From NCBI GenBank assembly GCA_023474835.1, contig JAMCXQ010000005.1, positions 1 to 56,672 on the forward strand: a stretch of 56,672 nt of DNA, read 5' to 3'. The DNA is from Patescibacteria group bacterium. GTDB lineage: Bacteria > Patescibacteriota > Minisyncoccia > Minisyncoccales > CG1-02-41-26. This document shows positions 19,894 through 29,240 of the stretch, piece by piece. The position numbers were made by a program, and so were the translations under genes. The notes beneath the pieces were generated by a model. That model made no database searches. It was not told where the DNA came from and worked only from the letters and a program-made list of their open reading frames with translations. Each line of letters begins with the position of its first letter. The first letter of the stretch is position 1.

Positions 19894-21000
19894 ATGCCAA
19901 ATTTAGTGTTATACCGCAAATATCGTCCTAAATTGTTCAGTGAAGTAATCGGCCAGGAGCATATTATAAAAACCCTTGAGGGCGCCATTTCCGAAGGGAT
20001 TTTTGGCCACGCTTATTTGTTTTCCGGGCCGCGGGGCTGCGGCAAAACAACTGTTGCGCGGCTTTTGGCAAAGGCGCTGAACTGCCAAAAAAGAAAATCG
20101 GGCGAATTTGAGCCTTGCAACCAGTGCGATTCTTGTTTGGAAATTTCAGAAGGCCGGGCCATTGATCTTATTGAAATTGACGCGGCAAGCAACCGGGGCA
20201 TTGACGAAATCAGGGAGTTGAAAGAAGGCATCAGGTTTTTGCCTGCCAAATCAAAATTCAAGGTGTTTATTTTGGACGAGGCGCACCAGCTTTCCAAAGA
20301 CGCCGCCAATGCCCTGCTCAAAACCCTGGAAGAGCCGCCCGGCCACGCCATTTTTATTTTAGCCACCACCGAGGCGAACAAAATGATTCCCACAATTTTG
20401 TCGCGCTGCCAGAAATTCGATTTCAGAAGATTGAAACTGGGGGAGATTGTCGGCCGCCTGGAAAGCATTTTGCAGCAGGAGAAAATAAAATTTGAAAAAG
20501 AGGCGCTGAGCTTAATTGCCGCTCACGCCGCCGGCTCAAGCCGCGACGCGGAGTCATTGCTTGACGAAGCGGTAAGTTTTTTCGGCCAGGACGGCTTGAT
20601 AACAAAAAAAGAAATCGAAGTTTTGCTGGGTTTGGCCGACATTGAAGCGGTTTTTAAGTTTATCGGGTTTTTAAGCCAGAAAAAAGCCAAAGAAGCCGTT
20701 GATTTCATAGCCGATTTGATGGAGCAGGGGATTGACATCAAAGAGTTTCTGCAAACCGTTATTATGTATTTCAGGGAAATTCTGCTTTTGCACATAGACG
20801 TTGGTTTTCAGGACGATTTGCTTTTCGGCTTGTCCGAGGAAGAAAAAGCAAAACTGCGCGATTTGGCAAAAAGTTTTTCCGAACAACAGACCAAGCAGAT
20901 TTTGGAAATTTTCACTGACGCGGAAAACAAAATGAAATACGCCACGATTTTGCAGCTTCCTTTGGAAATGGCGGTGGTTGAAATCTGTATTGAGAATTAA
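19894..21000 (+). CDS. dnaX: DNA polymerase III subunit gamma/tau (short form)
   Basis: LYRKYRPKLFSEVIGQEH, GPRGCGKTT, a Cys cluster (CQKRK..CNQCDSC), ILDEAHQL and SRCQKFDF. Confidence 0.9.
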   Translation: MPNLVLYRKYRPKLFSEVIGQEHIIKTLEGAISEGIFGHAYLFSGPRGCGKTTVARLLAKALNCQKRKSGEFEPCNQCDSCLEISEGRAIDLIEIDAASNRGIDEIRELKEGIRFLPAKSKFKVFILDEAHQLSKDAANALLKTLEEPPGHAIFILATTEANKMIPTILSRCQKFDFRRLKLGEIVGRLESILQQEKIKFEKEALSLIAAHAAGSSRDAESLLDEAVSFFGQDGLITKKEIEVLLGLADIEAVFKFIGFLSQKKAKEAVDFIADLMEQGIDIKEFLQTVIMYFREILLLHIDVGFQDDLLFGLSEEEKAKLRDLAKSFSEQQTKQILEIFTDAENKMKYATILQLPLEMAVVEICIEN

Positions 21001-21042
21001 GTAAAGTAGTTTGGTGCCGGTGTTTCGGATTTATCGTCGAAA

Positions 21043-21163
21043 TTGCCGGGTCGTCTAATGGGTCAAAGCCAACTACTTGGCTTTGACGGGCGATTTAGGA
21101 AATCGCCCCCGATTTCCATTAAAAATCGCCCAGGTCTTCCTTAAAAAGTTAGGCAAATTTATT
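21043..21163 (+). repeat. tRNA-linked structured repeat: 19-nt copy of the tRNA-Gln 5' end followed by a hairpin pair
   Basis: 21043-21061 is identical to 21163-21181. HP1 GTCAAAGCCAA-CTAC-TTGGCTTTGAC is at 21062-21087 and HP2 at 21088-21131, followed by AGGTCTTCCTTAA. Same family as 10464-10684. Confidence 0.75.
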
Positions 21164-21235
21164 TGCCGGGTCGTCTAATGGTAGGACGTCTCCCTTTGGA
21201 GGAGAATATTCTAGGTTCGAATCCTAGCCCGGCAG
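21164..21235 (+). tRNA. tRNA-Gln (anticodon TTG)
   Basis: Acceptor TGCCGGG/CCCGGCA (U1-A72, as in bacterial tRNA-Gln), anticodon arm TCTCC-CTTTGGA-GGAGA, T arm CTAGG-TTCGAAT-CCTAG. Confidence 0.85.
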
Positions 21236-21280
21236 CTGATAGAAAATCTTGTTGCGAAGCAACTTAGATTTTCATCATCC

Positions 21281-21406
21281 CGAACTGAAATTGTTTTAAA
21301 ATATTCAGAACAATTCGAAACCTTAAAACAAGCCAGACACCGTGAGGCTGAAATCAAAAGCTGGCGCCGCGAAAAGAAATTAGCGTTAATGAGTCATGGC
21401 AAATAG
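21281..21406 (+). pseudogene. C-terminal remnant of a GIY-YIG (UPF0213-like) nuclease gene
   Basis: Translates as RTEIVLKYSEQFETLKQARHREAEIKSWRREKKLALMSHGK*, which resembles only the last ~40 aa of small GIY-YIG proteins. There is no start codon or N-terminal GIY-YIG part. Its stop overlaps the MTase start. Confidence 0.45.
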
Positions 21407-22502
21407 TAATCTTACTAACGCGAAACAGGCAAAGAATGATGAGTTTTACACGCAATATGGCGATATTCAAAAAGAGATTGAGGCGTATTTGGAATTTAAC
21501 CCAAATGTATTTCGGGGCAGGGTTGTGTATTGCAACTGCGACGATCCGTTTGAAAGCAATTTTTTTCGCTATTTTACGCTTAATTTCAACAAGCTTGGCT
21601 TAAAACAGCTTATTACCACAAGCTACAAGCCCTCGCCCGTAGCCAACACGCAACTGAAATTGTTTGGCGATGATAAAACCCTTACAAAATCAAAGGGCCG
21701 CCCCAAGATAACCGCCAATAAATTTATTATCAATGAAGTAGCTGATATGGACAGCGATGGCGATTTTGATTTAAAGGACATTGCCAAGCAGTTAAAGGCG
21801 AATAAGCACAATGAATGGACGCCGCTTGAGAAAGACGGCGATTTTAGAAGTTCCGAATGCGTAAAATTATTGAAGCAATCAGACATCGTGGTAACAAATC
21901 CGCCGTTTAGTTTGTTTCGTGAATACGTGAAACAACTTATTGAGTATAATAAAAAGTTTGTGATTATCGGCAACAAAAATTGCGTGACATACAAGGAAAT
22001 TTTCCCATTGATTAAAGACAACAAAATGTGGTCTGGCAAAACAGAATGGTCTGGCGGGTTATGGTTCGTAACCATGGATGATGGCGATGTAGATAAAGTA
22101 GTCAATGGCGTTAATATGAAGAATGTGTCTTCTGTTTGGTTTACCAACATAGACCACGGCAGGCGGCATCAGCCATTGCCGCTTATGACAATGGAAGAAA
22201 ATTTGAAATACAGCAAACACAAAGAAATTCAAGGCAAATCGTCGTATGACAAATATGACAACTACGACGCCATAGAAGTGCCCTTTACTGACGCTATCCC
22301 AAGCGATTATAGCGGCGTAATGGGTGTGCCCATCAGTTTTTTGGATAAATATAGCCCCGAACAATTTGAGATTGTTGGGATGGCAGAGGATAATGGCAAA
22401 GGTTTCTCTGGCGGAATTTGGGACGGCAAAAATCCTCACTGTGTCATAAACGGAGAAAATAAGTTCAAGCGAATTTTTATTAAGCATAAGAAAGTTAAGT
22501 AA
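21396..22502 (+). CDS. N6-adenine DNA methyltransferase, EcoRI-methylase-like family
   Basis: N-terminal KNDEFYTQY, catalytic IVVTNPPFSLF (NPPF), and no adjacent restriction endonuclease recognised. Confidence 0.75.
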   Translation: MANSNLTNAKQAKNDEFYTQYGDIQKEIEAYLEFNPNVFRGRVVYCNCDDPFESNFFRYFTLNFNKLGLKQLITTSYKPSPVANTQLKLFGDDKTLTKSKGRPKITANKFIINEVADMDSDGDFDLKDIAKQLKANKHNEWTPLEKDGDFRSSECVKLLKQSDIVVTNPPFSLFREYVKQLIEYNKKFVIIGNKNCVTYKEIFPLIKDNKMWSGKTEWSGGLWFVTMDDGDVDKVVNGVNMKNVSSVWFTNIDHGRRHQPLPLMTMEENLKYSKHKEIQGKSSYDKYDNYDAIEVPFTDAIPSDYSGVMGVPISFLDKYSPEQFEIVGMAEDNGKGFSGGIWDGKNPHCVINGENKFKRIFIKHKKVK

Positions 22503-22508
22503 AAAAAT

Positions 22509-23018
22509 ATGGCAACAAAAAGACAAGTTTTTTACAGTTTTCATTACAAACCAGATTGTTGGCGAGCTTCCCAAGTTCGAAATATTGGAGCCATTGAAGG
22601 GAATAAACCAGCACCTGATAATGATTGGGAAACTATTATAAGAAGTGGCGATGACGCTATTAAAAAATGGATTAAAGATCAAATGAAATACCGATCATGC
22701 ACGGTTGTGCTTGTCGGCGAAAATACTGCTAATCGCAAATGGATAAATCATGAAATAGTTGAATCATGGAATGCAGGAATGGGAGTTGTTGGAATTTGTA
22801 TTCATGGTTTAAAAAATCAAGATGGATATATTGCAAATCAAGGACATGATCCATTCAATTACATTACATATGGCGATAGCGGTAAAAAATTATCATCAAT
22901 AGTAAAATGTTATAATCCGTCAGGAAGTAATAGTAAAGAAAGATATGATTGGATTTATCAATATATTTCTGATGCTGTTGAAGAAGCTATAAGAATTAGA
23001 AATAATTATTCAAAATAA
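22509..23018 (+). CDS. TIR-like protein (DUF1863/ThsB-type)
   Basis: RQVFYSFHYKPDCWRASQVRN, TVVLVGENTANRKWINHEIVESW and GVVGICIHGLKN, a pattern I associate with ThsB-type TIR-like domains. Confidence 0.7.
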   Translation: MATKRQVFYSFHYKPDCWRASQVRNIGAIEGNKPAPDNDWETIIRSGDDAIKKWIKDQMKYRSCTVVLVGENTANRKWINHEIVESWNAGMGVVGICIHGLKNQDGYIANQGHDPFNYITYGDSGKKLSSIVKCYNPSGSNSKERYDWIYQYISDAVEEAIRIRNNYSK

Positions 23019-23021
23019 AAT

Positions 23022-23459
23022 ATGGAAAATCCAACTGAATACAAACATTGTCCAAATAAAATTGCACACTTGCAGATGATTCAAGGTGTTATTGATCGTA
23101 TGGCCGGAAATTTATTTTATCTAAGGGGGTGGGCGATTACGCTACTTGCTGGGCTTTTTGCCATTTCTACTTCGGAAGCGTTAAGCCTCGCAAAGTGGGT
23201 TCCGTTATTATTTTTTGTTTTATTGATTTTATTTTGGATTTATGACGGATATTTTCTTTCTTTGGAGCGTAAATTTAGAGGTTTATATGATAAGATTAGG
23301 AAATTTCCGGAAGAGGAAATTGATTTTTCAATGAATATTGGAGAATTTAAAACTCATGCTGACAAAACGATGTTTGCTACAATATTATCTCCGACGCTAT
23401 TAGGATTTTACGGCATTCTAAGTTTGGCTATGCTGGTAATTATTAAATTTATTTTATAA
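23022..23459 (+). CDS. small membrane protein (3 predicted helices), candidate effector
   Basis: Hydrophobic helices lie at about aa 36-56, 59-78 and 119-143, with a charged linker SLERKFRGLYDKIRKFPEEEIDF. It is embedded between the two TIR-like genes with 3-nt and 1-nt gaps. Confidence 0.65.
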   Translation: MENPTEYKHCPNKIAHLQMIQGVIDRMAGNLFYLRGWAITLLAGLFAISTSEALSLAKWVPLLFFVLLILFWIYDGYFLSLERKFRGLYDKIRKFPEEEIDFSMNIGEFKTHADKTMFATILSPTLLGFYGILSLAMLVIIKFIL

Positions 23460-23460
23460 A

Positions 23461-24135
23461 ATGGCAAGAAAAATTTTCATTAGCTATAAATACGGAGATA
23501 CCGGCGTTCAACATATACCGCGCTATGGCGAATATGATGCAACGACAGCACGACATTATGTTGATGTTTTGCAAACAAAATTGGATGTGGCAGATCATAT
23601 CAATAAAGGGGAAAACGACGGCGAGGATATGAGTAAGTTTAAGGACGAAACGATAGAATCAAATTTGAGAAATAAAATTTTTGACAGTTCAATTACGATT
23701 GTCCTGATATCTAAAAATATGAAAGACCCCTATCTTGCCGAGGATGACCAGTGGATTCCTTGGGAAATTGCATACTCAATGAAAGAAATTACGCGCAACG
23801 GAAGAACAAGCGGAACAAATGCGATGCTAGCCGTCGTCCTCCCTGATGAGAATGGAAATTATTCGTATGTTGTAAATCACTATCAATGCGTAACTGTTTG
23901 GAATGTCGCATCTTTGTTTAAAATTATAGAAAGCAATATGTTTAATCGAAATCAGAAAAATTTAATTCGCTGCGTAACCTGCGGCGGTATTCATCATACA
24001 GGACAAGACCATTCATATATTCATCCAGTCAAATGGTGCGACTTCATTATTAACATTGATGGATATCTTAATCATGTTATTGGGCATCAAAGTAATCTTG
24101 ATAGTTTTGATATTGTAAAAGAAATAACGCATTAA
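23461..24135 (+). CDS. second TIR-like protein with Cys/His-rich C-terminal part
   Basis: ARKIFISYKYGD, ITIVLISKNMKD, QWIPWEIAYSM and a C-terminal CVTCGGIHHTGQDHSYIHPVKWCDF. Confidence 0.6.
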   Translation: MARKIFISYKYGDTGVQHIPRYGEYDATTARHYVDVLQTKLDVADHINKGENDGEDMSKFKDETIESNLRNKIFDSSITIVLISKNMKDPYLAEDDQWIPWEIAYSMKEITRNGRTSGTNAMLAVVLPDENGNYSYVVNHYQCVTVWNVASLFKIIESNMFNRNQKNLIRCVTCGGIHHTGQDHSYIHPVKWCDFIINIDGYLNHVIGHQSNLDSFDIVKEITH

Positions 24136-24145
24136 TTAAAAAAAT

Positions 24146-24199
24146 ATGAAAGCAATTTTAAAAAGCGACACTACTGTTAAAGATATTTGCGAGGGGTGA
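24146..24199 (+). pseudogene. 17-codon remnant of a DUF262-type gene start
   Basis: MKAILKSDTTVKDICEG* compared with [18 protein letters not shown] at 24930; 42 of 52 nt are identical by hand alignment. It starts 10 nt after the TIR gene stop. Confidence 0.6.
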
Positions 24200-24297
24200 A
24201 AATTATAGGCAATGGCGGGATTAAGTTGGAAAATTGAACTACCGAGGAATCCTCGGTAGTTCAAAAAACTTCGAATAAATTAGTTGAATAATAAGTT

Positions 24298-24699
24298 ATG
24301 GAGAAAGAAAATTATAAAAAAGAGTTTGATAAATGGAATATCCAAAAAAAGATTACTCACAATAGTGAAAATAAAAAAACTTTTCACGAACAAGAAATTT
24401 GGTTTATTAAAATTGGCGAGAATATTGGTTTTGAACAAGACGGAAAGGGCGAGGATTTTTTAAGGCCAGTTATTGTTTACAAAAAATTTTCAAAAAATGT
24501 TTTTTTGGGCATACCTTTAACAAAAGCAATAAAAGAAAATAAGTTTTATAAGGTATTTGATTTTCATGGAGAAAAAAGCAATGCAATTCTGTCGCAAATA
24601 AGACTTTTTGATTCAAAGAGATTAAAATATAAAATTGGAAAAATGAGTTCTGTTGATTTTGCTTCTGTAAAAGAAAAACTCATCCAGTTGATTAGATGA
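24298..24699 (+). CDS. MazF/PemK-like toxin, no adjacent antitoxin gene seen
   Basis: EIWFIKIGENIGFEQDGKGEDFLRPVIVYKKF..FLGIPLTKAIKE..AILSQIRLFDSKRL fits the PemK/MazF family pattern. Confidence 0.65.
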   Translation: MEKENYKKEFDKWNIQKKITHNSENKKTFHEQEIWFIKIGENIGFEQDGKGEDFLRPVIVYKKFSKNVFLGIPLTKAIKENKFYKVFDFHGEKSNAILSQIRLFDSKRLKYKIGKMSSVDFASVKEKLIQLIR

Positions 24700-24786
24700 G
24701 TTTTCCCTGTTTTTACTCCCCATAAGGGGAGAGAGTCCTAATGGACATTTATATTGTAATATTACCATATTTTAAAGTTAAAAGTC

Positions 24787-24907
24787 AATAGTAGGACTTA
24801 CGCGTTTGGGCATTTTTTCTCAAAAATCGCGTGAAATATGGCCTTATTTCGTGGCCTCATTGCACAAAAAATGGCTAAAACTGGCCAAACGCGTAAGTCC
24901 TAAATAG
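24787..24907. mobile_element. MITE-like element: 18-bp perfect terminal inverted repeats with 5-bp AATAG flanking duplication
   Basis: TAGGACTTACGCGTTTGG (24792-24809) and CCAAACGCGTAAGTCCTA (24885-24902) enclose a 75-nt non-coding core. AATAG occurs at 24787-24791 and again at 24903-24907. Confidence 0.55.
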
Positions 24908-24929
24908 TTTAAAAAAGTGAAAAAACAAT

Positions 24930-26099
24930 ATGAAAACGATTTTAAAAACCAATATTACCGTTAGAGAAATTTGCGACGGGTTTGTTTATAACGAGCTTGA
25001 GGGCAAAGGCTTGTTTGGCTTGTCTGGCAAATTGACTATTCAGCCGGAATATCAACGCAACTATATCTATGCTTCCGATGGGGGCAAAAAAGAAATTGCT
25101 GTTATTGGCTCAATTCTTAAGGGCTATCCAATTGGCTTAATTTATTTTAATAAGGTTTCTGAAAATAACCTGGAAGTTTTAGACGGGCAACAACGGATTA
25201 CCAGCTTAGGGCGGTTTATAACCGATAAATTTGCCATTAAAGATGCAAACAATATGGAGCAATATTTTAATGGTATGGCGAAAGACAAACAAGCCAAAAT
25301 TTTGGAAACCAAACTTTTGATTTACGAATGCGAAGGCACGGAAAGCGAGATAAAAGAATGGTTTAAAACGATTAATATTGCCGGCGTGCCGCTTAATAAT
25401 CAGGAATTGCTTAATGCTGTTTATTCTGGGCCGTTTGTAACGCTCGGCAAAGAAGAGTTTAGCAACAGCCAAAACGCCAATATCCAGAAATGGAGCGCCT
25501 ATATATCGGGCAGCGCTAACCGGCAGGACTTTTTGGAACGCGCTTTGGATTGGGTAAGCAAAGGAAATATCGGGGACTATATGAGCCACCATCGTTTTGA
25601 TAAAAATATCACTGAGCTCAAAAAATATTTCAACAGCGTGATTGATTGGGTTTCTGCTATATTTATTGATGTGGAAAGCGAGATGCGCGGGCTGGAATGG
25701 GGCAGATTATACGAACAGTATCATAAGAAAGCGTATGACCCCGTCAAAGTCTCAGCCGAAGTGCAAAAGCTTTACGCTGATCCGTATGTAAAAAATCGCA
25801 GGGGGATTTTTGAGTATATTCTCGGCGGTTCCGTTGACACGAAATTGCTTGATGTTAGAGTTTTTGACGAAGCAACCAAGAAAGCTGTTTATACAACGCA
25901 AACTGCTGCGGCCGGAAAGAAAGAAAAGTCAAACTGCCCGCATTGCGCCATTGGGCACGACGCCAACAAGAGCAAAATTTGGAGTTTTGGTGAAATGGAC
26001 GCCGATCACGTAGCGGCCTGGAGCAAGGGAGGCGCAACTACAGCTAAGAATTGTCAGATGCTTTGCAAGACACATAATCGAGCGAAAGGTAATCGATAA
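24930..26099 (+). CDS. DUF262 (ParB/GmrSD-N-like) plus HNH nuclease fusion protein
   Basis: [16 protein letters not shown] (the DGQQR motif of DUF262). C-terminal [31 protein letters not shown] is an HNH motif. Confidence 0.75.
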
Positions 26100-26250
26100 T
26101 TTTATCTATGCAGGGTTACCTAATATGCCCGGATCGATTATTGAGCCCGAGCTTCCAAAAAAGACGAAAAAAGATTAGAATCGATATAATCTCGAGTTAA
26201 TTGTTAGGGGTTCGGGGTATAAATATACCCGCATTGTTGCTGAAGTATAT

Positions 26251-26277
26251 TTCTAGCATTTACCAACTCTCGCAGCA
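26251..26277 (+). repeat. 27-nt direct repeat, left copy (TTCTAGCATTTACCAACTCTCGCAGCA)
   Basis: Matches 27488-27514 at 24 of 27 positions. Each copy is followed by a short hairpin using CAACTC/GAGTTG. Confidence 0.6.
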
Positions 26278-26379
26278 GAGTTTGCAAGAGTTGACAGAGA
26301 ATAGAAGGGAAAACTGACAAAAGTTTACAAGTTATCTTTGTGGGTCAACTAATAATTAATTTTAATAAATTTAATCAAT

Positions 26380-26742
26380 ATGGTATCTCCTCAACTTTGG
26401 TTAGAAATATTATCTCTTACAAAAGCTCTTTTTGATGCTATTAAGTCGGGCGCAGATCTTCTTGCGAGCTATCAGAAGCATAAACAAGAAAAAGAAACAG
26501 TTCAGGAGTCTCAGAGGGTAAGCGAAGTATTTTCTACCTACTCAGAAAATGAAGTAAAAAAGATTCTTTTACGATTAGAACAATGTCGGGATCGATTTAT
26601 TAAACAAGGTGGTGGTACGGATAGAGCGTCCTGTTTATGTAGTATATTGAATGAGGTTAAGATTGGTAATGGAGGTCAGCTTCCTATTATAGATGATTGG
26701 GCTAATATTTATCGTCAACTAGGGTGTGGTACTCATCAGTAA
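26380..26742 (+). CDS. hypothetical protein (120 aa)
   Basis: AT-rich ORF in the island; no motif recognised. Confidence 0.45.
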   Translation: MVSPQLWLEILSLTKALFDAIKSGADLLASYQKHKQEKETVQESQRVSEVFSTYSENEVKKILLRLEQCRDRFIKQGGGTDRASCLCSILNEVKIGNGGQLPIIDDWANIYRQLGCGTHQ

Positions 26743-26810
26743 TATTGATTCTAATCGAGACTAATGTTGCTAGAGGAGTTAAAAATAAACATAAATTTTT
26801 TTATAGAAAC

Positions 26811-27458
26811 ATGCAAAGTTTATTAGATACAAATCTAGAAAGAATTAAATCAGAAATACAACAAAATTCTTGGAATAATAAAGATATAGTTTCTTTAATG
26901 AATTTTTTTAGGCATATTTTAGAGTCAAGCAAATCTCAAGGAAAATATAAATATATTAATCTCTATTCTAATTGGGTATTTCACACGGAGATAACTAAAA
27001 ATTCAGTAGCAATGGATATTCTGGATATTTTGACTGATTCAATGATCAAACATAACGTTAATCCTAAAGATGGAAAGTGGGTTAACGATGCGATTATTGA
27101 AGGACTTTCACTTCATCTATTAAGAGAAGAAATTTTGTCATTCTCAAAAGAATTTAATCTTGGTACAGATGTTAACATTTACGAATTTAATAATTGGAAA
27201 AATTTTGCAGTGTCCTTAATAAAGGAATTATTAAATAAACCCTTGAAAGTCATTCAAAATAAGACGATATATAATAACCTTATCGATAAAGCAAATAAAT
27301 CAGGGTATATCGGCAATGCAGTATTAGCAATATATTTTTGGGTAGATAATAATGGGATTGTCCATTGGAAAATCGATACACCAGAAAGTTTAAGAAAGGG
27401 CGTTTCAGTAATTGGCCCGATGAGTATAATTTCTCAGCAGATGATCGATGGTTGTTAA
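26811..27458 (+). CDS. hypothetical protein (about 216 aa)
   Basis: ATG at 26811. The track's GTG at 26724 would overlap the upstream gene. No motif recognised. Confidence 0.45.
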   Translation: MQSLLDTNLERIKSEIQQNSWNNKDIVSLMNFFRHILESSKSQGKYKYINLYSNWVFHTEITKNSVAMDILDILTDSMIKHNVNPKDGKWVNDAIIEGLSLHLLREEILSFSKEFNLGTDVNIYEFNNWKNFAVSLIKELLNKPLKVIQNKTIYNNLIDKANKSGYIGNAVLAIYFWVDNNGIVHWKIDTPESLRKGVSVIGPMSIISQQMIDGC

Positions 27459-27487
27459 GCGGAAATTGAAGAGTTTGCCATTAAAAT

Positions 27488-27514
27488 TCTTCTAACATTT
27501 ACCAACTCTCGTAA
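27488..27514 (+). repeat. 27-nt direct repeat, right copy (TTCTAACATTTACCAACTCTCGTAACA)
   Basis: See 26251-26277. Confidence 0.6.
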
Positions 27515-27557
27515 CAATCGTGGACTTTTTGAGTTCGGGAATGCAAATATAGCTATA

Positions 27558-29240
27558 ATGAAAATAAATAATACTTTTAAGCTTGTTATCGCTGTCGTCG
27601 TTTCCGAACTTGCCGGCATTATCGGCTCGGTGTTTACGGCGCCATCTATTACCGGCTGGTATACAGAATTGGTTAAACCGGCCCTGAATCCTCCGGCGTG
27701 GGTGTTTGGTCCAGTCTGGACGACGCTGTTTGCTCTGATGGGCATTGCGGCGTTTCTGGTATGGAAGAAAGGGCTAAATCGTAAAGATATTAAAATCGCC
27801 CTTGGCATATTTATCGGTCAGTTGGTTTTGAATACTCTTTGGTCAATTATATTTTTCGGCTTGCACAATCCTGGCTTGGCATTTGTTGAGATTATTTTCC
27901 TTTGGTTTGCCATTCTTGCCACTGTTATCGCTTTCGCCAGAATTTCCCAATGGGCCGTATGGCTTTTGGCGCCCTATATTCTCTGGGTAAGTTTTGCCGG
28001 CTATCTCAATTATTCCATTTGGCAGGTTAATGCCGGCCCTTTGGCAAATACTGAACAAGTTGCGGTCAAAACTGTTGTTGAAAGTTTCGGCCATTCGCTA
28101 AAGAACGTTTCTTTGCTTTCTCCTACGGCCAGTCAGGACATTGAAATAAATTATAAGGACTTTCTCGACCCTGCTTTGCTGGCTCAATGGAAGGCCGACC
28201 CTTCAAAAGCATTGGGCAGACTGACTTCCAGCCCCTGGCCAGAGAGCATTGAGGTTGAAAGCATCAATAAATTCGGTTCTGGCGCTTATGATGTGAGCGG
28301 AAAAATCATAGATATGACCAGCACTGGCATAGCGGGATCGCAGGCAGTCCAAATAGGCGTTGTTAAATTCGGCGGCCGCTGGCTCATAACCGGAGTTTCG
28401 GTAATTTCTCCGGAAGGAAACGAGCTTTGGAAAGAACATAGCAGCAACGGCGTTTCTTTCCAGTATCCGGAAAAATTAACCGCTAAATATGTTTTTAGCC
28501 AGGGATGGCCGCCGACAGTTAAGGTGGAATCGGGCAGTTTTTCTTGCATAGAAACGCCGCAGGAAAAAAGCAGCATGCTTGAAATAACCAGCCAGAGATT
28601 GGTTGATAACAGAATTTACTGCGTTAACGTTAAAAACGAGGGGGCGGCAGGGAGCGTTTATTCTTCTTACGTTTACACTACTTCCATGAGAGGAAAAATG
28701 GTTTCAGTAAGCTTTGTTTTGCGTTATTCAAATTGCGCCAATTACGACGAGGAGCAGAATCAGGCCTGCACGAGCGAGCGGGAGGCCTTTGACCTTGACG
28801 CAACAGTGGACCGTATGGTTCAGACCGTCAGCTGGGATTCAGCTTTCAGTGAAGACACCTTATCCAATCAAATATCCAAGTGTCTGGTATTGAGCTATTC
28901 GGGAGACAAAGAAAAATGCGATGAACTTTTAAAACAGATTACCGATTTTGATTCCTGCGTTATGGCCGGTTTTTCGATATTAAAATCCAATCCAGCTCAA
29001 TGCCAAACAATTGACGGAAGAACCTTTGTCCAGGAAACAAACAGCACTTGGGAGCAGGCGTTATTGACTGTCAATAACTGCGAGGCTGAAAAAGCTTTCC
29101 AGACTCATAGCAGATTAGTAACCCTTACACTGAAAAACGGCAACAAGCTAATTGCCAAAGAACCGCAGATTGATGATATAATTGATATAATCAGAGCCGC
29201 AGAGTCGAAGTGCGGCAAAATTCCAATAGGAACAGAGTAA
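27558..29240 (+). CDS. TspO/MBR family membrane domain fused to a ~400-aa C-terminal extramembrane domain
   Basis: GWYTELVKPALNPPAWVFGPVWTTLFALMGIAAFLVW and LAPYILWVSFAGYLNYSIW are TspO-like across 5 TM helices. The remainder is soluble, Cys-containing and unassigned. Confidence 0.7.
   Translation: MKINNTFKLVIAVVVSELAGIIGSVFTAPSITGWYTELVKPALNPPAWVFGPVWTTLFALMGIAAFLVWKKGLNRKDIKIALGIFIGQLVLNTLWSIIFFGLHNPGLAFVEIIFLWFAILATVIAFARISQWAVWLLAPYILWVSFAGYLNYSIWQVNAGPLANTEQVAVKTVVESFGHSLKNVSLLSPTASQDIEINYKDFLDPALLAQWKADPSKALGRLTSSPWPESIEVESINKFGSGAYDVSGKIIDMTSTGIAGSQAVQIGVVKFGGRWLITGVSVISPEGNELWKEHSSNGVSFQYPEKLTAKYVFSQGWPPTVKVESGSFSCIETPQEKSSMLEITSQRLVDNRIYCVNVKNEGAAGSVYSSYVYTTSMRGKMVSVSFVLRYSNCANYDEEQNQACTSEREAFDLDATVDRMVQTVSWDSAFSEDTLSNQISKCLVLSYSGDKEKCDELLKQITDFDSCVMAGFSILKSNPAQCQTIDGRTFVQETNSTWEQALLTVNNCEAEKAFQTHSRLVTLTLKNGNKLIAKEPQIDDIIDIIRAAESKCGKIPIGTE

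Follow-up and report, generated by a model that had tools for sequence, protein, structure and literature searches.

A likely type V Thoeris cassette within a restriction-modification operon of a Patescibacteria genome

Introduction

To which defence system, if any, do four closely packed genes of a Patescibacteria genome belong, when two of them encode TIR-like proteins, one a small membrane protein and the first a DNA methyltransferase? The genes lie on the + strand of a window of 56,672 nucleotides, the whole stretch of DNA analysed here, as four ORFs (ORF1 to ORF4, of 368, 169, 145 and 224 aa) separated, from stop to next start, by gaps of 6, 3 and 1 nt. The original prediction read them as a TIR-signalling, Thoeris-like module with the small membrane protein as its effector, and the coordinates, gaps and sequence motifs on which it was built agree with the DNA and its translations. 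Homology of ORF3 to the effector ThsF suggests that this core idea was sound. We conclude that the segment 22509-24135 is, in all likelihood, a type V Thoeris system with the gene order ThsB-ThsF-ThsB, placed between the M and R genes of a type II-like restriction-modification (R-M) pair in a low-GC island beside a tRNA-Gln gene (Table 1).

Results

Setting of the locus

GC content drops from about 0.46 to 0.30-0.37 over 22-28 kb. No att site was found as a direct repeat of the tRNA-Gln 3' end within 21100-28200, and a promoter and terminator scan of 20800-27700 gave nothing above shuffled expectation, so that the operon boundaries are not set by the scan.

Table 1. Features of the cassette and its surroundings, in positions of the window.
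Feature	Position	Strand	Basis and remarks
tRNA-Gln(ttg)	21164..21236	+	ARAGORN; proximal edge of low-GC defence island
EcoRI-family N6-adenine DNA methyltransferase (ORF1), M of predicted host R-M pair	21396..22502	+	PF13651, PADLOC MTase_II
ThsB-A (ORF2), putative TIR sensor and signal synthase; catalytic Glu82 in WINHEI	22509..23018	+	PF08937, PADLOC ThsB, PDC-M50B
ThsF (ORF3), probable type V Thoeris effector of 145 aa, three membrane helices	23022..23459	+	BLASTP, PADLOC PDC-M50A, AlphaFold2
ThsB-B (ORF4), putative second TIR sensor/synthase, dissimilar to ThsB-A; catalytic Glu102 in WIPWEI; C-terminal extension	23461..24135	+	PADLOC ThsB PDLC00428, PDB 9vyl
5' relic of older R gene, 17-codon stub MKAILKSDTTVKDICEG*	24138..24197	+	60-nt direct repeat
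Perfect 12-bp stem with 3-nt loop, between R stub and MazF-like gene	24237..24263	.	Read from sequence
PemK/MazF-like gene without visible antitoxin ORF	24298..24699	+	PF02452, E 1.4e-7
DUF262 (ParB/GmrSD_N-like) + HNH endonuclease, predicted R partner of the methyltransferase	24930..26099	+	PF03235, PF01844, PADLOC REase_II

ORF3 is a homologue of ThsF

The effector, which the original prediction had left unassigned, can be placed by homology. BLASTP aligns ORF3 with the validated ThsF of B. thuringiensis at 45% identity over 119 residues with 3 gaps (E 2e-33), and with the effector of a Terribacillus plasmid at 38% identity over the full length (E 4e-29). Our ThsF reference was the 141-aa product of the gene lying 13 nt downstream of a ThsB gene whose product matches the validated B. 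thuringiensis DAR 81934 ThsB at 100% identity. A B. cereus locus carrying the best plasmid homologue of B. thuringiensis ThsB (L081) was rejected as a guide; its SIR2/TIR context was of no help. All four PADLOC models of the PDC-M50A family match ORF3 (E 1.5e-40) and also the B. thuringiensis ThsF.

The description of ORF3 as a small three-helix membrane protein is borne out by its hydropathy profile, in which three hydrophobic helices agree with an AlphaFold2 monomer model of mean pLDDT 92.5 (long helices at 11-49, 60-94 and 124-144). Judged against 140 diverse relatives, the conserved residues of ORF3 concentrate in two places, the N-terminal helix and the stretch that follows TM2; the basic ones among them cluster on helices predicted to be cytoplasmic, an arrangement that would be compatible with the positively charged pockets between protomers of the published ring. 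Fusions of SLOG to ThsF also exist (P0150, P0202), and these fit a membrane module that serves as the output of a nucleotide sensor.

Pfam PF10028 (DUF2270), the label in use for ThsF, matches neither ORF3 nor its 19 close relatives, and it also fails to match the validated B. thuringiensis protein. Among the 140 diverse relatives there are only sub-threshold matches, in 27 sequences (best E 1.4e-5); P0138, for example, reaches 15.6 bits where the cut-off is 25. By hmmscan, the PF10028 label does not split ThsF members from non-members. Since the model misses ThsF, the validated protein included, annotation pipelines that rely on DUF2270 will overlook type V Thoeris.

The effectors of other Thoeris types can be set aside. 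As the original prediction had noted, there is no SIR2, SLOG or Macro domain in or beside the cassette: Pfam and PADLOC profiles find none in the eight ORFs of 21396-27458, which leaves type I without its SIR2 and SLOG domains. Type II was rejected on the grounds that ORF3, at 145 aa, has neither a Macro domain nor a PADLOC ThsA-type match, and type VII, with its SLATT membrane effector, on the grounds that ORF3 and 19 relatives do not match the SLATT family at E values up to 10.

Two dissimilar ThsB proteins flank ThsF

ORF2 and ORF4 had been predicted to be ThsB-type TIR proteins, and the profile matches agree. ORF2 matches Pfam ThsB_TIR (PF08937, E 2.4e-27), PADLOC ThsB (E 3e-66) and PDC-M50B (E 2e-63), and its translation contains QVFYSFHY, QVRN and TVVLVGENTANRKWINHEI. 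Its PDB relatives include 8wcf (E 1.4e-32) and B. cereus ThsB (9b7d/6lhy, E about 4e-18). TIR domains that carry the label 'DUF2270 - Type V' in Table S1 of Yirmiya et al. (doi 10.64898/2025.12.03.692087) share 75-76% identity with the protein; the effector labels of that table are, by the authors' own account, cluster-level and noisy.

ORF4, with the motifs KIFISYKY, ITIVLISKN and QWIPWEIAYS, matches ThsB_TIR more weakly (E 5.4e-7) and PADLOC ThsB PDLC00428 over its full length (E 6.7e-76), and its homologues, too, include TIR domains that the same table lists under type V. Its counterpart in the PDB is 9vyl, 'BdThsB1 with NAD' (51% identity, E 7.6e-65, TM-score 0.85). From the molecule name ('BdThsB1', 'TIR1') we take 'Bd' to be B. 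dafuensis. The catalytic Glu, aligned with E85 of B. cereus ThsB, is invariant in an alignment that includes both ORF2 and ORF4. In the C-terminal extension of ORF4, C143, C171 and H184 are invariant and C174 and H179 are present in 19/20 close homologues; this Cys/His tail was rejected as a family-wide zinc motif, being conserved in close homologues only and absent from BdThsB1 and the Table S1 sequences.

The methyltransferase pairs with a downstream nuclease

ORF1 is, as had been predicted, an EcoRI-methylase-like N6-adenine methyltransferase (PF13651, E 1e-119; PADLOC MTase_II, E 2e-100; motifs DEFYT and VVTNPPF). Its inclusion in a single four-gene system did not survive comparison. Genes for EcoRI-family methyltransferases and DUF262-HNH proteins are directly adjacent on unrelated plasmids of Enterococcus, Apilactobacillus, Pediococcus and Moraxella, with M-R gaps of 2-11 nt (E. 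faecium, Apilactobacillus, Pediococcus) or 234 nt (Moraxella), and this methyltransferase adjoins the cassette in only one of 80 related loci. We therefore assign ORF1 to the DUF262-HNH nuclease encoded downstream (PF03235, E 4.8e-21; PF01844, E 3.8e-6; PADLOC REase_II, E 3.5e-82, full length). The two are a predicted R-M pair, and the methyltransferase is not a component of the putative Thoeris system.

The stub listed in Table 1 is the first copy of a 60-nt direct repeat, 82% identical, whose second copy (24922-24981) takes in the start of the DUF262-HNH gene with its RBS region. Its position directly after ORF4 agrees with the order M-ThsF-ThsB-R at the related locus L001. Further downstream, the 50-nt stretch around the stem has a folding energy of -23.1 kcal/mol, and the MazF-like gene has no plausible antitoxin partner among ORFs of at least 20 aa. 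By comparison with L001, from which it is absent, the MazF-like gene is a later insertion.

The cassette recurs inside R-M operons

Conservation of the TIR-membrane protein-TIR trio in other genomes had been proposed as a check, and the pairing at its heart is common. Among 80 related loci, out of 301 genome loci, 72 have the ThsF gene directly beside a ThsB gene, and 7 show the exact order TIR-ThsF-TIR. Cassettes of ThsF and ThsB are abundant in Patescibacteria, where ThsF is unusually well conserved. A same-strand R-M gene abuts the cassette in 25 of the 80 loci, on both sides in 12 and on neither in the remaining 55. In the 12 two-sided loci the M gene directly precedes the cassette, and in those inspected the two lie a few nt apart. 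The host systems fall into three classes: type I hsdM/hsdS, type III mod/res, and an EcoRI-like M with a DUF262-HNH R.

Embedding of the cassette within R-M operons is thus a recurrent pattern in the genomes compared. The coupling to DNA methylation that the original prediction had considered possible stands to this extent; functional coupling is not thereby demonstrated. Embedding of defence genes in R-M operons is already documented, and it is also how PDC-M50 was first flagged (Payne et al. 2024, doi 10.1101/2024.01.29.577857).

Discussion

A model for the cassette

In the mechanism we favour, each of the two dissimilar ThsB proteins would sense a different set of phages, as the TIR1 and TIR2 proteins of B. 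dafuensis suggest. With two ThsB genes the phage range is additive, and the cADPR isomer that activates ThsA is made by both (Ofir et al., doi 10.1101/2021.01.06.425286). Once infection is sensed, the TIR catalytic Glu would turn NAD+ into a cyclic ADP-ribose isomer, most likely 3'cADPR, and this signal would bind a conserved basic juxtamembrane surface of ThsF formed by K13, H16, R26 and K35 in the N-terminal helix together with R83 and R86, which follow TM2. A homo-oligomeric ThsF ring, pictured after the validated B. thuringiensis homologue and a published AlphaFold3 heptamer model, may then breach the membrane and abort the infection. The methyltransferase and nuclease would act as an independent R-M system with which the Thoeris cassette only shares an operon.

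Type V Thoeris is an anti-phage defence in which ThsB makes 3'cADPR and Tad1 blocks defence; 3'cADPR is toxic to cells with the type V system of B. thuringiensis, and one validated type V system is not triggered by exogenous 3'cADPR (Yirmiya et al.). Because of that unresponsive system, 3'cADPR as the signal here is uncertain. The TIR cluster of ORF2 also contains type XI TIRs (Yirmiya et al.). It is conceivable, if unlikely, that this clade, common to type XI Thoeris, makes a yet-uncharacterised signal that is read by the present ThsF lineage.

Alternative explanations

We considered whether ORF3 might instead represent a separate novel effector family, like ThsF in topology only, and hence a new Thoeris type. 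Pfam holds no family at all for ORF3, PF10028 included, a profile search of PDB sequences gives no match, and a fold search of the PDB with the ORF3 model returns only generic helical hairpins (best E 0.8). The homology to validated ThsF and to the Terribacillus effector, together with PADLOC models common to ORF3 and the validated protein, already refutes this idea, and validated ThsF likewise has no PF10028 match; we find the proposal scarcely credible. It is also highly improbable that the TIR proteins are NAD+-depleting effectors and not signal synthases, with the membrane protein acting as sensor or anchor and not as killer. CBASS, Pycsar, SPARTA and certain AVAST systems do use TIR domains as NADase effectors, such a role is raised by Yirmiya et al. 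for configurations that are unverified, and the signal of the ORF2 TIR cluster is still undefined. Yet ORF2 and ORF4 fall in ThsB families and not in effector-TIR families, ORF4 shares 51% identity with a protein whose deposited entry names it a cyclic ADP-ribose synthase, addition of 3'cADPR sets off a homologous ThsF system and the Tad1 sponge blocks it, and the SLOG-ThsF fusions likewise speak for ThsF as the output.

The nesting within R-M operons raises a different question, namely whether cassette and host are functionally wired together, the cassette acting either as a guard akin to PrrC in EcoprrI, with ThsB monitoring the R-M complex or phage anti-restriction proteins, or within a four-gene methylation-coupled system. 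The abutting R-M genes, in three R-M classes and at times on both sides, are in keeping with such wiring, as are the identities between the window and L001, which are 83% for ThsF and 48% and 39% for the flanking M and R; PrrC provides a precedent for embedded backup defence. Against this, most of the related loci have no abutting R-M gene, validated type V systems protect a heterologous host as operons of two genes, and the mechanisms of the host R-M classes are unrelated to one another, a point that disfavours a specific protein-protein interface. Unrelated defence genes are commonly embedded in R-M, BREX and DISARM operons, where linked transfer can suffice as the explanation (Payne et al. 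2024), and the MazF-like insertion and the R-gene stub mark this site as recombinogenic. We therefore regard functional wiring as quite improbable. In a broader form of the idea, type V cassettes directly after the M gene in type I, type II-like and type III R-M operons would constitute a second defence line tied to the host system; ThsB could, for example, be activated once phage anti-restriction proteins disable the R-M complex, by analogy with PrrC and EcoprrI. This, too, we consider unlikely, and an independent type V cassette that shares an operon with its R-M host remains our preferred reading.

Implications

The TIR-ThsF-TIR cassette is another copy of the recently described, already known type V Thoeris. 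A variant of Thoeris whose membrane effector is minimal had been deduced from the sequence alone, and experiments published in December 2025 established type V Thoeris, so that the finding here confirms known biology and does not extend it. What the analysis adds is the abundance of ThsF and ThsB in Patescibacteria, a group without mention in the main text of Yirmiya et al.; the blindness of the Pfam DUF2270 model to ThsF; and the recurrence of the cassette just after a methyltransferase gene in three R-M classes, which supplies concrete loci at which to probe the link between embedded defence and host. The original prediction was right in concept and has been superseded by the type V Thoeris publication (Yirmiya et al., bioRxiv, December 2025).

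Comparison with known systems

The PrrC anticodon nuclease of the EcoprrI type I R-M locus resembles the present case as a second defence module nested in an R-M operon. The R-M complex physically keeps PrrC inactive, whereas the module embedded here is a putative signalling system. The type I Thoeris of Bacillus dafuensis (ThsA, TIR1 and TIR2; Ofir et al. 2021) likewise combines two dissimilar ThsB proteins and one effector in a single operon, but its effector is the soluble SIR2-SLOG NADase ThsA, whereas here it is a membrane protein, ThsF.

The original prediction did not recognise this layout as a named system, and had counted placement in one by annotation tools among the outcomes that would speak against it. 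PADLOC places the membrane protein-TIR pair in its candidate PDC-M50, a two-family system defined from cassettes embedded in known defence systems (Payne et al.), with adjacent PDC-M50A (ORF3) and PDC-M50B (ORF2) genes. The name gave no match in a full-text literature search and is present in a supplementary table of Payne et al. The locus differs from PDC-M50 in its third gene, ThsB-B, and in its type II-like R-M host; Payne et al. screened type I R-M, BREX, DISARM and Hma systems.

The closest comparison is with type V Thoeris itself (Yirmiya et al.). Here two ThsB genes flank ThsF, against one in the described systems, and ORF2 and ORF4 belong to other TIR clusters than the ThsB proteins of the two validated systems. 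The host is a Patescibacteria (CPR) genome, and the cassette lies inside an R-M operon, an embedding that Yirmiya et al. do not mention. The defining elements are nevertheless shared, namely a ThsF homologue with three membrane helices and an adjoining ThsB with its catalytic Glu, and even the TIR-effector-TIR order is represented in their Table S1, by IMG gene-ID pairs n/n+2.

The cassette and its family assignments

Our ORF listing places the four genes of the original prediction on the + strand at the positions it reported, with spacings of 6, 3 and 1 nt, and the motifs it quoted all occur in the translations. Its assignment of ORF1 to the methyltransferases and of ORF2 and ORF4 to the TIR proteins is upheld by profile searches. 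Pfam and PADLOC profiles returned no SIR2, SLOG or Macro domain from the eight ORFs between 21396 and 27458 (0/8), in agreement with the earlier reading that none lies in or beside its four genes. Below, the cassette means the ThsB-ThsF-ThsB genes (22509-24135).

Features of the cassette and its surroundings
Feature	Position	Strand	Match or location
tRNA-Gln	21164-21236		immediately upstream of the methyltransferase gene
ORF1, EcoRI-family N6-adenine methyltransferase (M)	21396-22502	+	PF13651, E 1e-119
ORF2, ThsB-type TIR protein	22509-23018	+	PF08937, E 2.4e-27
ORF3 (ThsF), without Pfam family	23022-23459	+	PDC-M50A, best E 1.5e-40
ORF4, ThsB-type TIR protein	23461-24135	+	ThsB_TIR, E 5.4e-7 (weaker Pfam match)
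R-gene 5' stub, 17 codons, MKAILKSDTTVKDICEG*	24138-24197		directly after ORF4 stop
PemK/MazF-like gene	24298-24699		PF02452, E 1.4e-7; between cassette and R gene
R gene, DUF262+HNH protein, 389 aa	24930-26099		PADLOC type II restriction-enzyme model, full length, E 3.5e-82
Two overlapping ORFs, 120 and 244 aa	26380-27458		distal end of low-GC island

Within the PADLOC library, ORF2 is recognised both by the candidate model PDC-M50B (E 2e-63) and by ThsB models (E 3e-66), for ORF4 the hit is a full-length ThsB model (E 6.7e-76), and ORF3 (locus tag M1127_00495 at NCBI, on a contig of a Patescibacteria MAG), to which a Pfam profile search gave no family, matches all four PDC-M50A models. The two distal ORFs, which have no match in Pfam, NCBIfam or PADLOC, may be further uncharacterised defence genes.

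ORF3 is a homologue of ThsF

Type V Thoeris consists of ThsB and ThsF, the latter an effector that spans the membrane with three helices and is annotated as DUF2270 (Yirmiya et al., bioRxiv December 2025, doi 10.64898/2025.12.03.692087). The Bacillus thuringiensis DAR 81934 system protects against phage, its ThsB produces 3'cADPR upon infection, cells that carry the system are poisoned by added 3'cADPR, and the Tad1 sponge blocks its defence; from one of the validated type V systems, added 3'cADPR elicited no response (Yirmiya et al.). In the TIR table of that paper (Table S1), ORF2 is 75-76% identical to TIR domains tagged 'DUF2270 - Type V', ORF4 is clearly homologous to others so tagged, and pairs of IMG gene IDs (2598686312/2598686314, for example) point to the order TIR-effector-TIR.

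Because ORF3 has no match to PF10028 (DUF2270), we compared it with ThsF directly. A Bacillus cereus-group protein, P0270, is 100% identical to the validated ThsB, and 13 nt downstream of it lies a 141-aa gene, in agreement with the consecutive IMG IDs of the validated ThsB and ThsF. ORF3 is 45% identical to the product of this gene (E 2e-33), which the four PDC-M50A models recognise as well (E 1.8e-48). It too is missed by PF10028 in hmmscan, and only 27 of 140 diverse family representatives reach that profile, all below threshold, so that the DUF2270 label reflects a remote similarity that hmmscan misses. Independent support comes from Terribacillus and Priestia plasmids, where homologues of the validated ThsB adjoin ORF3 homologues (38% identity, E 4e-29). 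Judged by sequence, ORF3 owes its type V membership to direct homology to ThsF, and the cassette is a type V Thoeris system (PADLOC PDC-M50). The functional intuition of a TIR-signalling defence module stands, but the system has a name and the effector described as unassigned is a ThsF homologue.

ThsF family and structure

A word-indexed search found 530 homologues of ORF3, and an exhaustive search 4,814 clusters at 50% identity. The structure model is confident (pLDDT 92.5) and shows two long helices, 11-49 and 60-94, packed as a hairpin with hydrophobic centres, followed by a third, C-terminal helix (124-144). Two sets of residues kept across 140 relatives (K13, H16, Q21, R26, K35, G36 and W37; F71, W72, D75, E82, R83, R86 and Y89) map to the N-terminal amphipathic helix and to the segment after TM2, which by topology lie on the same, cytoplasmic side. 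These residues agree with the proposal of a basic ligand pocket in ThsF, which AlphaFold3 predicts to be a homo-heptameric ring with positively charged inter-protomer pockets (Yirmiya et al.). Fold and sequence-profile searches of the PDB found no solved structure resembling ORF3.

Identity to ORF3 lies at 60-85% in many ThsF proteins of Patescibacteria, a conservation unusually strong for a small membrane protein. The Pfam family 8xMP (PF24838, octameric membrane proteins) gives weak, near full-length matches to ThsF proteins (E 0.001-0.01; P0138, L087:4773-5198), and many relatives match DUF3278, which may indicate that ThsF sits in a broader superfamily of small, ring-forming membrane proteins. 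Two larger relatives, P0150 (362 aa) and P0202 (378 aa), carry the ThsF-like module at the C-terminus, preceded by a region of ~220-240 residues. One member of the 140-sequence set matched SLOG (LD_cluster2), a match that probably stems from the N-terminal region of such proteins; no SLOG domain emerged when P0150 itself was scanned. Were this region a SLOG domain, it would support the membrane module as the effector output of a nucleotide sensor.

Pairing of ThsF with ThsB

Among 80 loci from species-representative genomes, an ORF3 homologue abuts an ORF2- or ORF4-like gene in 72, so the pairing of membrane protein and TIR protein is strongly co-conserved. ThsF is followed by an ORF2-like TIR in 44 loci and by an ORF4-like TIR in 12, and the exact trio proposed originally, ORF2-like/ThsF/ORF4-like, recurs in 7. 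Outside the 72, one locus (L035) has an adjoining ORF that is TIR-like by inspection and more divergent, and another (L072) is interrupted by a transposase-like gene; within the 72, L021 has an extra divergent TIR-like ORF downstream. LexA-like genes (Peptidase_S24 plus LexA_DNA_bind), which may be regulators or mobile-element repressors, are the closest neighbour in roughly 9 of the 138 cases, frequently in divergent orientation (L010, L035, L072 and others).

Both ORF2 and ORF4 retain the catalytic Glu aligned with E85 of B. cereus ThsB. Over the whole of its length, the model of ORF4 (pLDDT 87.7) aligns with PDB 9vyl at a TM-score of 0.85 (51% identity, E 7.6e-65). This entry, 'BdThsB1 with NAD', bears the description 'Putative cyclic ADP-D-ribose synthase TIR1'; from the molecule name we take Bd to be B. 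dafuensis. TIR1 and TIR2 of B. dafuensis have additive phage ranges and both make the cADPR isomer that activates ThsA (Ofir et al., doi 10.1101/2021.01.06.425286). From these points and the ThsF pocket fit, we infer that the two ThsB sensors would widen phage recognition while supplying one signal to ThsF, most likely 3'cADPR, although ORF2, whose TIR cluster is common to type XI systems, may make a different one; on receiving the signal, ThsF would breach the membrane.

In ORF4, three residues (C143, C171, H184) are invariant, and two more (C174, H179) are kept in 19 of 20 close homologues. These residues (143-184), not kept in BdThsB1 or more distant type V TIRs, may form a zinc site within this ThsB subfamily's sensor extension.

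The methyltransferase belongs to a restriction-modification pair

The original prediction joined all four genes into one system. Of the 80 loci, L001 alone (order M, ThsF, ThsB, DUF262-HNH) has the methyltransferase next to the cassette. Homologues of this enzyme neighbour those of the DUF262-HNH nuclease on unrelated plasmids of Enterococcus, Apilactobacillus and Pediococcus (gaps of 2-11 nt) and Moraxella (234 nt), and lie about 1.3 kb from them on a Phocaeicola plasmid. The methyltransferase is therefore the M half of a separate R-M pair, into which the Thoeris cassette is inserted. Between the window and L001, ThsF (8001-8438 in L001) is 83% identical, and the flanking M, R and ThsB-B (ORF4) proteins only 48%, 39% and 46%.

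The 60-nt segment holding the R-gene stub is 82% identical to 24922-24981, where the R gene has its RBS region and first 17 codons. Following the stub are a perfect 12-bp hairpin, the PemK/MazF-like gene, with no antitoxin ORF detected on either side and absent from L001, and the intact R gene. Stub and hairpin (24138-24263) look like the scar left when recombination introduced the MazF-like gene and a second R allele. On the simplest reading, the ancestral order would have been M-cassette-R, as in L001, with the MazF-like gene and another R allele recombining in later. An island acquired in association with a tRNA is suggested by the tRNA-Gln gene together with a drop in GC content to 0.30-0.37 across 22000-28000, but att-like direct repeats were not detected.

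Embedding in R-M operons and comparison with known systems

The 80 loci give 138 nearest neighbours of the cassette outside Thoeris itself, and R-M components predominate among them (N6_Mtase 15, N6_N4_Mtase 11, Methylase_S 11, HsdM_N 8, C5 methylase 6, ResIII 5). With neighbours already identified as queries, a same-strand R-M gene abuts the cassette in 25 of the 80 loci, on both sides in 12 and on one side in 13 further loci. There are three classes of embedding: hsdM-cassette-hsdS, mod-cassette-res (L008) and EcoRI-like M-cassette-DUF262-HNH R. In type I and type III operons the cassette directly follows the methyltransferase gene (L002, L008, L009, L014-L018, L020, L022, L028), and at the embedded cassettes inspected (L016, L008) the gaps are 2-6 nt. 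Three of the cassette-hosting HsdM proteins (L016:697-2439, L022:4299-6008, L028:5799-7481) combine an N-terminal MerR-type HTH with HsdM_N and N6_Mtase, a domain arrangement uncommon among type I methyltransferases.

We favour linked transfer together with a permissive insertion site as the reading of the embedding; a functional link between cassette and host R-M is a less likely alternative. Restriction and methyltransferases are not mentioned in the type V Thoeris paper (Yirmiya et al.). The PDC candidates come from a 'guilt-by-embedding' approach applied to type I R-M, BREX and DISARM, and PDC-M50 was assigned in a supplementary table from an embedded two-family cassette (Payne et al., bioRxiv 2024, doi 10.1101/2024.01.29.577857). 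Embedding in R-M operons is accordingly not new in kind, and the cassette is real, but of an already known system.
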